Source: a virus (taxonomy: Duplodnaviria; Heunggongvirae; Uroviricota; Caudoviricetes). Taken from it: a stretch of 53,298 nucleotides of DNA. The stretch lies in IMG/VR virus record IMGVR_UViG_2558860170_000008; one strand, written 5' to 3'. Under the pieces are notes generated by a model. That model worked only from the letters and a program-made list of their open reading frames with translations. It ran no database searches and was not told the DNA's origin. This document shows, piece after piece, positions 3,562 to 43,707 of the stretch (position 1 is its first letter; every line of letters begins with the position of its first letter). The position numbers were made by a program, and so were the translations under genes.

Positions 3562-4072
3562 CCGGCACCCCGGACAGGGCGCTATATGACCCCGGTAATG
3601 AATGCTCTGAACATCCCGTAATGAAAAATTGTGGGGATGCTATATACGTTCCGGTGGGAGTACTGGGCACTGAAATCCCCACCGGTCCCAGTCGTGAGCC
3701 TCTGTATGACTGCCCCCTGACAAGTCTGATGACTTTATCACCGTCAGCTTCTCCCTGGTACGCAGCAATAATCAGCCCGCCAATGTCAGGGTCTCCCCAT
3801 CTGTTGCAGACAGAGCTCGCCACGATTCTGTAAATAATATCTTCTGTGGTTATATTTATTTTCACCCAGCCAGTCAGTCTGGATATGGGCCAGTAGCAGT
3901 AGCGGGTGTGATAAATGGGGCCGTTAATGCCGTAAAAAGTAAGGGATTTGGCTCTGTACCTCGGTTCTGTTGTCTCAGGGCGTGCATCAGTCCACCGGAT
4001 GCTGAGCACCCCTTCAAACCGTGTGTCGGGTATGATGATGTCGTAGGGGCCAGCAACGGAATATTCACCTGG
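3512..4072 (-). other. Degenerate tail-fibre-region remnant abutting the prophage junction; two overlapping minus-strand frames (3512..4009 and 3874..4062), coding status ambiguous
   Basis: The frame continuous with the stf fragment at 43018..43707 across the 10-bp repeat ends at 3874; a second long frame runs to 3512 but has only a GTG start. Confidence 0.3.
4063..4072 (+). repeat. 10-bp direct repeat ATTCACCTGG, copy 1 (low-coordinate prophage junction)
   Basis: Identical 10-mer also at 43081..43090; position calibrated against ORF codons on both sides. Confidence 0.7.
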
Positions 4073-4093
4073 CAGCTATAGCGCGGCGATTTT

Positions 4094-4160
4094 TTTGATA
4101 CCGATTTGCATTTCATTTGATACCGCTGAAAAACGCCGATACGCAACTTATTTGATACTA
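4094..4160 (+). repeat. Three copies of a TTTGATAC(C/T) motif near the prophage right end; candidate transposase-binding sites
   Basis: TTTGATACCG at ~4094, TTTGATACCG at ~4116, TTTGATACTA at ~4151; same motif in inverted orientation at the other end. Confidence 0.45.
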
Positions 4161-4204
4161 AATCGGCGCTTTTCTTTTGAGTTTTAGAATGAGTTTTTAA
4201 GCGT

Positions 4205-5104
4205 TCATTCACTCTCTTTCAAACCAGTTTTAACTGTTTGTGGTTTTGGGTAAGGCTGGACTTTGAATAGCTTTGTGTTAAGGCGTTTTCTGGCTCTCTT
4301 GTCCAGAAACCGGATGTAACGAAACTGACGGAATTTATGAACACTGGCTCTGTCGATATTAGCCCGCAGATGTTCACCTCGCTGTCCTCCTCGTTTGATT
4401 GCATTCTTGCAAATCTCGTGATACCACTCGCCATCAAGTTCATAGAATGTTGTTTCATGACTGCCTACATAATCAAAATTGCTTGCCTGGTACACGACAC
4501 CAAGACAGCCACAACGCTCATCTGCAAACGACTGAACCCACTGCACCTGCGGATAAAGTTGTCTGATTAGTTTGAGCGCGTAACTGATTGCCCTTGATTC
4601 GGAGTTTCTCGGCATACAGTCATGCAGCCATAACCGGTTAAGCTCCATATATTCGCGGTTCTGCGTGCCAGTTACGACGCGTGCACCATTGTTTGGATTA
4701 AGGGCATAACCCCATTGCATTACGCCAACCAGCTCCCGTTCTGAAAATATGCCCAGATGAAGGTAGGAATTATTTACGAAACGATGGCTGTAATGTTTAT
4801 TGACGACGACCAGCCGGGCCAGCCAGCAACTTATTGTCTCAACCCGTAACTCACGGGAGCCATAACCGACGATATTGTCGTTATAGTGAATAAGTTCAGG
4901 CGTGCTGATGATACGGGATGTAACTTGCTTTCTGTTCCCCACGACAGGATTTCCTTGTGTATGTGGGGTGCTCTGTGGCGCTCTGAGATGTGATTTGATT
5001 GAGGGTTTTACAGCGCGGACATTTAACTTCCAGATAACTGAAGCTGGCTCGTGCCAGTAGCTTGTTACAATGTCGGCACCGTATGTTTCGATACATGGCC
5101 GCAT
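4205..5104 (-). CDS. mom: Mom-like DNA-modification protein; start codon uncertain
   Basis: Long ORF in a different frame overlapping a Com-like zinc-finger gene at the prophage right end, which is the Mu com-mom arrangement; no in-frame ATG/GTG/TTG near the com stop, so the start may be the ATG at 5104 or a non-canonical start near 4900. Confidence 0.55.
4896..5096 (-). CDS. com: Com-like zinc-finger translational activator of mom
   Basis: [35 protein letters not shown]... has the CxxC...CxxC spacing of Mu Com; ATG at 5094-5096; immediately precedes and overlaps the mom frame. Confidence 0.7.
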
Positions 5105-5142
5105 AACCTCCTGCTTTGTTGTTGATATCTTTATCACTCAAT

Positions 5143-5162
5143 CGATCGACAAAAACGATCGA
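5143..5162. promoter_or_regulatory. Two closely spaced GATC sites (CGATCG palindromes) upstream of com/mom
   Basis: ATCGATCGACAAAAACGATCGAT seen directly upstream of com; Mu mom is known to be regulated through Dam-methylated GATC sites and OxyR; functional equivalence here is inferred. Confidence 0.35.
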
Positions 5163-5352
5163 TTTGATTTATTTAATTGATACAACAAATAACACGAAAT
5201 GTCATTAGCGAAAATTTATGAGTTTGATCACTAATTTTAAACGGTGCTGTAACGCATAAGTGCTGAATGATTGTACATTTGAATACCGCAAAGCAAACAA
5301 ATCAACTAATTTATAGAAGTCAATTGGTTAATTGCCAGCGTAAGAGGCTGCT

Positions 5353-5646
5353 ATGGACAATCATGTAACGACGAGAAATCGAAAAATGATTGAAAATGCG
5401 GAAATCTATAATGATTATTTTTCCGATTATTCAGATGCCTGCAAATACAGTTCGAGTGCGGGAGAGTTCATATGCTTCAACTTTTTTATTAAATCTTATG
5501 TTTTTCCTCCACAGCAAGAAGATGGAGGTGTGCCACCTCCTGAAATCACTTTGCACCGTATAGCCTCCGTCTCAATGATGGAGCAACAGGCTAATGAGCT
5601 GTATAGCATTCTGGGAACGATTCTACAAAAGCGTGAATCGGACTAA
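5353..5646 (+). CDS. Hypothetical protein, low-GC, opposite strand to neighbouring prophage genes
   Basis: 97-aa ORF with ATG start in an AT-rich block; no recognised domain. Confidence 0.35.
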   Translation: MDNHVTTRNRKMIENAEIYNDYFSDYSDACKYSSSAGEFICFNFFIKSYVFPPQQEDGGVPPPEITLHRIASVSMMEQQANELYSILGTILQKRESD

Positions 5647-5813
5647 TGATACCGGTTCATTTGCCTGCCCGGATGGGGAAGCAGGATTGACTGCTCCATA
5701 AGCAGCTATATTTCTGAATACGAAATACTATCCAGCGATTACATATGGCTGGATAGCGGCAAAGATGTTTTCATTAGTGTCAAACCGGCAGAGGACACCA
5801 CCGGTTTGTATTG

Positions 5814-41874: not shown

Positions 41875-41875
41875 A

Positions 41876-42124
41876 TCATGACGCCTTTCTCATATAGCTC
41901 TTAACCTGGTATCGACTGGGCCAGATTTCTTCAGGTGATACCCCAAGAGCATCAGCAATTATTTGCTGATACGGTCGGCAAGGAGTACGTAATACGCTTT
42001 TCAGCGAATCCCTGCTGTAACCAGCCTTTAAAGATAAAGAGCGCAGTGATAAGCCTGCCATGTGTAAGCGCGCCTTGATGATTTCAGGCGGCCAATCGTG
42101 ATCTGAAACTTCTCTTCTACTCAT
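41876..42124 (-). CDS. ner: Ner-like DNA-binding early regulator
   Basis: 82-aa ORF; ...QQIIADALGVSPEEIWPSRYQ matches Mu Ner (...EQIIANALETKPEVIWPSRYQ). Confidence 0.8.
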   Translation of the reverse strand: MSRREVSDHDWPPEIIKARLHMAGLSLRSLSLKAGYSRDSLKSVLRTPCRPYQQIIADALGVSPEEIWPSRYQVKSYMRKAS

Positions 42125-42195
42125 ACTTCCTCTATTCTAAAAAGTTACCCGCGCGGATATTCGTGCGGATATCTGTACGGGTAAATAATGCATCA

Positions 42196-42232
42196 CCAAA
42201 AATACCAAATCAAGGTATTTTTGGTATTTTGG
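42196..42232. promoter_or_regulatory. Operator-like palindrome CCAAAAATACC-N7-GGTATTTTTGG (plus a further TATTTTGG) in the divergent c / ner-A-B control region
   Basis: Inverted repeat seen directly between the repressor and ner starts. Confidence 0.45.
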
Positions 42233-42314
42233 CTAATTTTTGCTTTTATCCTTATTTTTCAATTGGATAAATAGAAAGAAACCTTTCCTTAGAAAAGCAC
42301 CAAGAGGTATCTTT

Positions 42315-42845
42315 ATGTCGCAGGGAAAAGAACCTGTTATTGAACGTATTGGAATGCTTACAAAGCGCTACCCTTCAAGAAGTGCAGCTGCCAGAGCGTG
42401 GGGAATCAATATCAACACATTAAACAGCTATTTCAAGGGAGGACAAACACAACCAGCCCCCAGAGAAAGTATCCTTATACGAATTTCTGAAAGTGAAGGC
42501 GTTAGTCTTGAGTGGCTTAAAGAGGGCAAGGGTGAATTACCAAACGATATTGGTATTTATGGTAATTTTGGTTGTTCTGGTGATAAGGGAGATCAGCTTA
42601 CACAGATGCTTTCATTCCTTACGAAAGACGAACGAGAACAGTTAACCAATCTCCTTGCTCGCAAAGGTGTAGAGACGGTTCTGACACTGCTGAATAAAGA
42701 AAACCAAGATTTATTACAACTAGAAGGCAGGAAGCGCCTGGCTGCGTTGATGATTGTAGATATGCCAGACGATTGCGTCAGAGAGATTTTGGAAAAAACC
42801 GAGACAAGTAGGCAATCAAATCCGGTAGAATCTAAAGCGGGTTAG
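42315..42845 (+). CDS. Mu c-like repressor
   Basis: Start at ATG 42315 (MSQGKEPVIERIGMLTKRYPS...); divergent from ner; C-terminal region resembles Mu/D108 repressors. Confidence 0.75.
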   Translation: MSQGKEPVIERIGMLTKRYPSRSAAARAWGININTLNSYFKGGQTQPAPRESILIRISESEGVSLEWLKEGKGELPNDIGIYGNFGCSGDKGDQLTQMLSFLTKDEREQLTNLLARKGVETVLTLLNKENQDLLQLEGRKRLAALMIVDMPDDCVREILEKTETSRQSNPVESKAG

Positions 42846-42922
42846 TTTGGCGAGGCTGGCCCGTATGTTAGTTGCCATATAGATTTAATGAAGTTTTAAA
42901 CGCTTTAAAAAGTTGAGATCGC

Positions 42923-43080
42923 AGTATCAAAAGTTTTGCCGATTTTAGAATAAACGATTAATTATTGCACAATCGATATCAAATAGACTTTAAGCGCTCA
43001 TCCAGACATCACCTGTTTTATTTCAGTATCTTACAGGTGATTTCACCTCCTTTCACTAAAACCCTCGTTGGTATCAAATG
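42923..43080 (-). repeat. Three inverted copies of the TTTGATA(C/T) terminal motif near the prophage left end
   Basis: GGTATCAAAT at ~43070, GATATCAAAT at ~42978, AGTATCAAAAG at ~42925; mirror the three copies at 4094..4160. Confidence 0.45.
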
Positions 43081-43707
43081 ATTCACCTGGTTACACAGCG
43101 CATTCCTTACCCAGGCCAGGAAATCACTCTTAGTGTCAAAACGGATAACATCTTCAGGCAGAAAAGCACACCCAAAGCCGAATGCGCCGGGTATCGCCAG
43201 ACGGCCTTTTGTCCGGTCGTAAATGTCGCTCTGTGCTTCCATCGTGGCCGCACTTTTCAGCCCCAGATTATCCCGGGACTTCTGTTGTGCCTTTTCGCCT
43301 GCTGCTGCGATTTCAGACAGATGGTTAGCCGTTTTCAGAGTGCCGGTCAGCGCAGCATCAATGTCATTTTTGGCCTGCTCTGCTGCGCGGGCATAACCTG
43401 CGGCTGCCGCCACATCCTGCGCCGTCTGCTGTGCGTTTCCGGCTGCGGCCCCGGCGCTCTGCTGCGCCTGCGCCACCATTTCCTCAAAGCGTTTGACGAC
43501 ATCCGGTTTCAGGTCGCCCTCATCAGGAGCAATCAGAAAGTCATTCAGCGTGCCGGGCTTTGAGTCCTCATATACAGCAATGTCGCCAACGTTGTACTCG
43601 TTGTGCCAGCCCGGTTTCAGATACACACCATATTTTCCAGTCCGCGCATGGAAACAGTATTCACCATCGTTTCCTGTCATCACATCAGCAACAGTGTGCA
43701 TCACCAC
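43018..43707 (-). pseudogene. Lambdoid side tail fibre (Stf) N-terminal fragment, truncated at the 5' side by the IS66-family element and interrupted at the 3' side by the Mu-like prophage
   Basis: ...DIAVYEDSKPGTLNDFLIAPDEGDLKPDVVKRFEEMVAQAQ... then an Ala/Gln-rich segment, matching the N-terminal region of E. coli Stf proteins; the last ~20 codons read into the prophage end. Confidence 0.7.
43081..43090 (+). repeat. 10-bp direct repeat ATTCACCTGG, copy 2 (high-coordinate prophage junction)
   Basis: Identical to 4063..4072; position calibrated from codons 206-209 of the stf fragment. Confidence 0.7.

Follow-up and report, generated by a model that had tools for sequence, protein, structure and literature searches.

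Ends and target-site duplication of an Sp18-type Mu-like prophage inserted in a tail-fibre gene

Introduction

The 53,298-bp virus record IMGVR_UViG_2558860170_000008 of IMG/VR (Caudoviricetes; hereafter the window, i.e., the whole stretch of DNA that was analysed) carries a Mu-like prophage that splits a tail-fibre gene. A first-pass annotation, made from the sequence alone, had described this prophage as flanked by a 10-bp direct repeat, ATTCACCTGG. The locus therefore raises a simple question: is this repeat the trace of the insertion and, if not, where does the prophage end and what did its insertion duplicate? Very probably, the region 4077-43095 is one copy of an Sp18-type prophage, which has its own ends and is bordered by a 4-bp duplication, CAGC, and the 10-mer is unconnected with this duplication.

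Ends of the prophage

A search of 5,426 complete E. coli genomes with both junction regions found nearly identical copies (95-99.9% identity) in about 230-350 E. coli records, at unrelated loci whose flanking genes differ (citF, ypdB, rhsD, puuB, flgL, prophage tail genes and others). Copies located at so many unrelated chromosomal sites imply that the prophage has no fixed att site, as is the case for transposable phages. The search provided 55 distinct right-side flanks and 43 distinct left-side flanks for the prophage family; both ends could be read in 20 insertions (the window and 19 other copies), to which further loci showing a single end are added. The extent and the terminal regions that result are the following:

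4077-43095, minus strand: Sp18-type Mu-like transposable prophage, delimited by the terminal alignments of 20 insertions and by an empty site
4077-4158, plus strand: right-end terminal region, starting with TATAGCGCGGCG and holding three inward-facing TTTGATAC motifs at 4094, 4116 and 4151
42924-43095, minus strand: left-end terminal region, holding inward-facing TTTGATAY motifs at 43071-43078, 42976-42983 and 42924-42931

The prophage thus delimited spans 39,019 bp, and homology with the other genomes breaks off at both of its terminal bases. The mom (right) end is position 4077 and reads TATAGCGCGG…, the repressor (left) end is position 43095 and reads …CACCTGGTTACA. In the aligned copies, the element invariably starts with TATAGCGCGGCGATTTTTTTGATACC and ends with GGTATCAAATGATTCACCTGGTTACA. 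The junctions proper are 4076|4077 and 43095|43096 and not the two 10-mers, where the first-pass annotation had put them. The alignment of termini that it had proposed as a check places the ends at 4077 and 43095 in every copy, whether in the 20 insertions read at both ends or in the single-end loci.

The first four bases of the right end are TATA in 55 of the 55 distinct right-end junctions, and the left end is TTACA in 42 of the 43 distinct left-end junctions. The right terminus is …GCTATA-3', i.e., TA and not CA, and the left terminus is TG (…TTACA on the top strand). The prophage family therefore has a TG...TA pair in place of the TG...CA terminal dinucleotides of transposable phages. The single exception at the left end, TTATA, comes from the mouse strain M3 (NZ_CP010183.1, L056), in which this end reads ...GGTTATA and not ...GGTTACA at locus position 38930, so that TA is found at both termini. 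The duplication of this copy is nonetheless a clean one of 4 bp (TGCG). Either the element tolerates a change of its penultimate base, or this base was mutated once the insertion had taken place.

The TTTGATAY motifs are clustered at both ends, three per end, inside the element and all facing inward, and the first of them occupies bases 18-25 of each end, that is, the same register. These motifs are presumably transposase-binding sites. The remark of the first-pass annotation that its terminal TTTGATA(C/T) motifs differ from those of Mu was well founded; end sites of this type are the reason why it did not recognise Mu end sequences. Two of the TTTGATAY matches outside the phage are explained by a palindrome, TTTGATATCAAA, in a low-GC stretch (51000-52000, 30% GC), especially at 51766-51779; this palindrome is apparently unconnected with the phage ends. 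A scan of the species representatives of GTDB for the right end gave no match.

The 10-mer and the empty site

As the first-pass annotation had noted, the same 10-mer does occur at 4063-4072 and at 43081-43090. These are its only two occurrences in the window, where 0.14 would be expected, and only one of 100 shuffled sequences reached two. Its two copies, the two parts of the interrupted gene and the two copies of the duplication are located as follows:

43081-43090: high-coordinate 10-mer, bases 6-15 of the phage left end (TGTAACCAGGTGAATCATTTGATACC when read inward)
4063-4072: low-coordinate 10-mer, coding DNA of the host tail-fibre gene (minus-strand codons of ...LPGEYS...)
3512-4076, minus strand: C-terminal part of the tail-fibre gene, which joins the N-terminal part on excision
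43096-43723, minus strand: N-terminal part of the host prophage tail-fibre gene, with a phage_tail_N domain
4073-4076: right-end copy of the duplication CAGC, a single CAGC in the empty site
43096-43099: left-end copy of the duplication CAGC, deduced from the empty site and the end alignments

The two 10-mers are of different origins. The high-coordinate copy lies 5 bp inside the element, in the first putative transposase-binding site, and it is carried by all 43 left-end loci recovered. Part of these loci were found with patterns containing the 10-mer itself; the junction search and the aligned copies show it independently. The low-coordinate copy ends 4 bp outside the element. The low-coordinate flank is covered over at least 80% of its length in 10 genomes, and one of them, NZ_CP065613.1 (L001), provides an empty site in which the two flanks are contiguous (...GGAATATTCACCTGGCAGCGCATTCC...), with one 10-mer followed by one CAGC. 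The junction, which can be read as ...CACCTGGCAGCGCATTCC... and also as ...AATATTCACCTGGCAGCGCATTCC..., thus holds both in single copy. Judging from this comparison, the low-coordinate 10-mer is a pre-existing host sequence, which is neither phage DNA nor duplicated by the insertion. The empty-site check suggested by the first-pass annotation hence gives a divided answer: the 10-mer is single-copy there, but only as ordinary host coding sequence.

Both flanks are halves of one tail-fibre gene. The presence of a Mu-like prophage within a tail-fibre remnant, as first proposed, is confirmed by these two halves and by the gene block that separates them. Excision of 4077-43099 produces a 407-codon frame, ...FLAWVRNALPGEYSVAGPYD... 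(...VRNALPGEYSVAGPYD...), which is the same as the intact protein at the junction. By contrast, the excision initially thought to restore the frame, that of the insert plus one copy of the 10-mer, leaves an extra TTACA and gives a frameshifted product, ...NALCNQVNIPLL... (...VRNALCNQVNIPLL...). In prophage-free genomes the intact gene has 422 codons and contains the 10-mer in frame. In the window, the first ~27 codons have been lost to an IS66-family insertion sequence (IS) that starts at ~43724 and begins with GTAAGCGTGCAGC....

None of the other insertions in which both ends were read has a 10-bp repeat at its junctions. None of the 5,426 complete E. coli genomes holds the exact insertion of the window. 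Its left-end junction, including the tail-fibre fragment, occurs in HE616528.1 (GCA_000283715.1), which we take to be the chromosome of Shigella sonnei 53G.

Length of the duplication and target preferences

The CAGC that abuts both ends of the prophage and is single-copy in the empty site is a short target duplication, as found with transposable phages, but its length of 4 bp falls outside the 5-6 bp quoted for them. The first-pass annotation was thus right to doubt a canonical 5-bp duplication; its suggestion of a longer one does not hold, the duplication being shorter. Among its three options, that of element ends which happen to match the target is the nearest: the left end holds the 10-mer in full plus TTACA, and matches host DNA near the other end, but this 10-mer is not the duplication.

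Across the 20 independent insertions, the duplication is 4 bp long in 19 cases and 5 bp long in one. The 4-bp repeats abutting TATAGC... and ...TTACA are CAGC, CGAA, CCCG, CAGG, TACC, AGTG, CTTA, ATAC, CAGT, TGCG, CACC, CAAC, AGAC, AACC, AGCA, TATC, TTCT, TGTT and CGGT. At puuB, the 4-bp reconstruction matches the uninterrupted target at 180 of 180 positions (100%). The sole 5-bp case, AGACG, is that of the O26 strain RM10386 (NZ_CP028126.1, L057), with junctions at locus positions 364 and 39108; there, the empty site reconstructed with 5 bp is identical to the portal gene in its uninterrupted form (179 of 179 positions, 100%). Another copy (L076) struck the same pentamer, AGACG, elsewhere and duplicated AGAC only. 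Taken together, these two copies indicate some flexibility of the stagger. Three genuine Mu prophages (that of E. coli W and two others), treated in the same way as a control, gave 5 bp and TG...CA ends. The 5-bp duplication of Muvirus sensu stricto is therefore not that of this family (4 bp in 19/20 insertions versus 5 bp in 3/3 Mu controls).

A 5-bp duplication obtained by counting the T of TATAGC or the A of TTACA as target was also considered and rejected: the fifth base seldom matches, the T and the A are constant across copies, and the empty sites disagree with this reading.

Target preferences were pooled from the 55 right-side and 43 left-side flanks. They show G at -6 (53/98), C at -5 (39/98) and an avoidance of C at -3, with G at +5 and C at +6 on the left-side flanks. 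The consensus target is thus GC-NNNN-GC, mirror-symmetric about a 4-bp core, with C avoided at the second duplicated base. The target of the window, GG[CAGC]GC (4071-4076 and 43096-43101), agrees with it. When the left flanks are scored under the complemented right-side frequencies, they reach +8.6 bits at zero offset and fall to between -15 and -19 bits at offsets of 1-2 bases. This symmetry, which exists only at zero offset, favours a real 4-bp stagger.

Proposed mechanism and alternative explanations

The prophage would have entered the tail-fibre gene of a lambdoid prophage by DDE transposition. For joining to the target, the element would use its 3' ends, ...GGTTACA-3' (top strand) and ...GCGCTATA-3' (bottom strand); the target phosphates that receive them would lie 4 bp from each other, and repair would then duplicate CAGC. 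The ends and the duplication are read directly from the alignments, and the joining chemistry is proposed by analogy with Mu. Of the two 10-mers, one is the subterminal sequence of the phage left end, and the other is a host sequence whose position, 4 bp away from where the element inserted, would be due to chance. A 4-bp duplication and a right end in TA characterise the phage family and are not quirks of the copy in the window.

Several points weigh against this account. According to a rough estimate, a perfect 10-mer within a few bases of both junctions has a chance of ~1e-4 per insertion. This coincidence becomes less surprising because the first-stage reading selects coincidences and because hundreds of independent insertions of the family exist. 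The other right-side flanks are slightly more similar to the left end than permuted controls, so that pure coincidence may be an incomplete explanation. The stagger is not absolutely fixed, given the 5 bp found in one of the 20 insertions. Furthermore, a transferred 3'-TA end is unusual in this transposase superfamily, the cleavage positions are deduced by analogy, and all the insertions examined are fixed prophages and not fresh transposition products.

Of the other explanations that can be proposed, the one closest to the first-pass annotation would take ATTCACCTGG as a 10-bp duplication (or as a 5-bp duplication together with 5 bp of the element end), the element then running from ~4073 to 43080. 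The 10-mer indeed occurs exactly twice, near both junctions, and is single-copy in the empty site. However, in all other copies, at unrelated loci, the high-side 10-mer and TTACA belong to the element, and 10-bp repeats are absent from the other insertions. Compared with the empty site, such an excision would leave five bases too many and shift the frame. The empty site and the aligned termini rule this explanation out and leave it practically no credence. The same can be said of the idea that the low-coordinate 10-mer is the relic of an older Mu-like left end, left by a nested or tandem insertion. Its 10 bp are identical to the phage left end and have the same orientation, but the identity ends after 10 bp on both sides and the 10-mer is in frame within the intact 422-codon gene of prophage-free genomes; the intact gene and the empty site make such an origin equally hard to believe. 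More attention should be paid to a canonical 5-bp stagger followed by the loss of 1 bp at the right-end junction, by flap removal or gap repair. Mu and the D3112-type relatives give 5 bp (Ab30 shows a five-base shift, PMC5977238), one member of the family has a true 5-bp duplication, and the enrichment of G at the base that follows the 4-bp repeat on its 3' side could be taken for the fifth position of a pentamer target. Nevertheless, this scenario needs a precise and one-sided loss in 19 of 20 events, the outside preferences are mirror-symmetric about a 4-bp and not a 5-bp core and, reasoning from the Mu mechanism, replicative transposition templates the gap strand, which leaves no obvious step for the loss of 1 bp. 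It is therefore improbable.

The last alternative is compatible with a 4-bp duplication and concerns only the origin of the low-coordinate 10-mer, which would not be due to pure chance. The transposase could be mildly drawn to target sequences resembling the left end (CACCTGG), the right end tending to land just past such a pseudo left end, in the way that some insertion sequences target sequences like their own inverted repeats. The right flank of one copy, L049, shares CACCTGGCAG with the window, in register and in a non-homologous context; a homologous target gene common to both was considered and discarded, the flanks being unrelated outside the motif. More generally, the right flanks of L049, L004, L056, L003, L020 and L057 bear CACCTG-like cores 9-13 bp from the junction, in left-end orientation. 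In 50 flanks picked without regard to similarity, the best run shared with the left end averages 3.74, compared with 3.40 after column permutation (P=0.005), and runs of at least 7 are seen twice for 0.33 expected (P=0.04). BLAST alignments extend at least 15 bases into the flanks in two cases, compared to ~0.14 expected, assuming roughly 120 distinct sites, a number guessed from the listed flanking genes. On the other side, the effect is small, the motif was defined post hoc and the spacing between it and the junction is not constant. Such a motif is missing within 16 bp of the junction at seven more unbiased sites (one has CACCTG 24 bp off), the similarity comes partly from the general target consensus (G at -6), and the left side shows no enrichment of a mirror-image motif, L008 being the sole case. 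These statistics are suggestive but weak, and such an attraction has a rather low probability and is not a finding. It is somewhat less likely still that the Sp18-type transposase differs from MuA in all three respects, i.e., by joining its ends 4 bp apart, by having TA-3' at one end and by being partly steered by CACCTGG in its targets. If true, the 10-mer of the window would be a footprint of target capture directed by a pseudo-end.

Relationships with other transposable phages

On sequence grounds, the prophage is a member of the Sp18-type Mu-like prophages of enterohaemorrhagic E. coli (EHEC) and Shigella, where they are common. It shares with them 95-99.9% nucleotide identity at both ends and in the early region, and the same annotated gene order, without any essential difference. 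This identity was measured with the Mu-like prophages of O157, O26, O103 and O145 genomes. The closest phage records (96-97%) are the "inserted Mu-like phage" regions of Shiga toxin (Stx) phages of Shiga toxin-producing E. coli of clonal complex CC119 (LC727881 and LC727895), which their authors call Sp18-like (PMC10132054). Sp18 (Sakai) and phi804-3 (FRIK804) are Mu-like prophages of O157:H7 (PMC7430833, PMC2669165). The insertion sites of Sp18-like prophages vary and are often within other prophages (PMC10132054, PMC7430833, PMC2669165), and one of these studies (PMC2669165) reports no circular form of Sp18.

Like Mu (and D108 or SfMu), the prophage corresponds to a transposable myovirus of ~37-39 kb that carries repressor, ner, A and B genes, then lysis, head and tail genes, an invertible tail-fibre segment, com and mom. 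It also resembles Mu by its MuB-like ATPase (48% identity), by three transposase-site repeats per end and by random insertion with a short duplication. In contrast, its transposase is only 22% identical to that of Mu, its end repeats are of the TTTGATAC type and not of the CGAAA type, its right end is TA and not CA, and its duplication is 4 bp and not 5 bp long. The target consensus of Mu is N-Y-G/C-R-N, versus GC-NNNN-GC here. Neither the MuA-type transposase nor the MuA-binding end repeats of Muvirus sensu stricto are thus found in this prophage.

Beyond the Sp18-like prophages and the Yersinia phages vB_YpM, the nearest phage transposases are those of Pseudomonas VW-6B (47% identity) and Klebsiella Kp4852-3 (41%), followed by those of the D3112/DMS3 group (~30%), all these figures being obtained over ~90% of the protein. 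The D3112/DMS3/Ab30-type phages have a related transposase but are siphoviruses with other morphogenesis modules. Ab30, a D3112-like phage, shows a five-base insertion offset, i.e., a 5-bp duplication unlike that of the window, together with insertion hot spots associated with the sequence (PMC5977238).

The transposase gene of the Yersinia phages vB_YpM has ~81% DNA identity with that of the window over ~1.5 kb (vB_YpM_5, L070). This phage, classed as Muvirus, also has end repeats of the TTTGATAC type (4570-4780), its left end begins with TGTAGAACACCTGCC... and its ends bear TGTA.... In its "circular" record, ~60 bp that are apparently of host origin separate the right end from the left end. 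As the assembly was circularised with this host DNA included, it gives no duplication length.

A survey from 2021 indicates that all Mu-like and B3-like phages known at that time had TG-CA ends and 5-6-bp duplications, except for Leptospira prophages with TA-TA ends and 6 bp (PMC8705779). These Leptospira prophages (WETA1 group) are a precedent for ends other than TG...CA (PMC8705779). They differ from the family of the window in that both of their ends are TA, their transposase is of the B3/Tn552 type and their duplication is 6 bp long, whereas here only the right end is TA (both ends in one strain) and the duplication is 4 bp long.

A literature search of incomplete coverage found no report of the duplication length or termini of Sp18-type phages, nor of a 4-bp duplication in Mu-like prophages; in PMC10132054, PMC7430833 and PMC2669165, neither the terminal bases of Sp18-like prophages nor the length of their duplication is given. 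Provisionally, the variant seen at the family level (4-bp duplication, TG...TA ends, GC-NNNN-GC target) looks unrecorded.

How far apart the two active sites of a transpososome sit on the bent target DNA is reflected in the length of the target duplication. In Mu-like phages, this length, 5 or 6 bp, is taken to be constant within the family, as are TG...CA ends. A Mu-like phage that is widespread in enterobacteria and has a MuB-type partner, 4-bp duplications and one TA terminus is a natural comparison for studies of stagger and end recognition. In addition, tools and curation that expect 5-6-bp repeats and TG-CA ends will misplace the borders of Sp18-type prophages, which are common in EHEC and Shigella and frequently reside within other prophages, those of Stx phages included. 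A border error of this kind is illustrated by the 10-bp "repeat".

Gene content of the prophage

A minus-strand block of genes, including head and tail genes, lies between the two 10-mers, and its order and content are Mu-like. The main genes and segments are the following:

39784-41874, minus strand: transposase A, 696 aa, with Pfam domains Mu-transpos_C and HTH_Tnp_Mu_1 (Mu DNA-binding)
38769-39710, minus strand: MuB-like AAA+ target-capture ATPase (Phage-MuB_C, AAA_22; 48% identity to MuB)
41876-42124, minus strand: Ner-like HTH regulator (HTH_35; annotation of homologues)
42315-42848, plus strand: putative repressor, 176 aa, divergent and adjoining the left end, proposed from its position
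4205-4942, minus strand: mom (DNA modification; PF25680), the last gene before the right end
~4896-5096: com, overlapping mom, from annotation
8571-9143, minus strand: Gin-like invertase gene, from a domain match
8571-10546: the invertase gene together with an invertible tail-fibre segment, the latter bounded by 86-nt inverted repeats at 9214-9299 and 10461-10546

As in transposable phages, a transposase A and a MuB-type ATPase lie beside the repressor/ner switch at the left end. The transposase, 22% identical to MuA, belongs to the PHROG family phrog_310 (E=3e-211). A phmmer comparison of this protein with the PDB retrieved no MuA chain at E<=1e-3, only weak matches to retroviral integrase cores. 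The putative repressor has no Pfam match.

The 86-nt inverted repeats are 93% complementary and flank a 1.2-kb tail-fibre segment beside the Gin-like invertase. This looks like an invertible host-range segment comparable to the G segment of Mu, with different genes. Between the invertase and the right end, a 684-aa protein (6431-8485, minus strand) has a SASA carbohydrate-esterase domain and a DUF6645 domain and may be a receptor-modifying tail spike or fibre; Mu has no such gene at that place. In the PGAP annotation, several copies of the prophage carry an 80-nt "tRNA-OTHER" flanked by the genes for virion morphogenesis and head morphogenesis (21305-21385 in L003, 20598-20677 in L002). ARAGORN detected no tRNA in the whole window.

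Regions flanking the prophage

The window itself is ordinary, since it consists of a prophage of a known family that splits a gene of an already decayed prophage. On the low-coordinate side, a gene of the ipaH type, encoding an E3 ligase effector of a type III secretion system (932-2758, plus strand), adjoins decayed genes of the host prophage. Beside it, the region 2938-3561 (minus strand) holds tail-fibre and DUF4376 genes of this decayed prophage, a layout common to a few genomes resembling enteroinvasive E. coli (EIEC) or Shigella. The high-coordinate flank, from 43724 to ~50600, is made of the IS66 element followed by IS3, IS21/IS100 and IS66 pieces that are found mostly on plasmids. The ipaH gene and this IS-dense flank are consistent with an origin from Shigella or EIEC.

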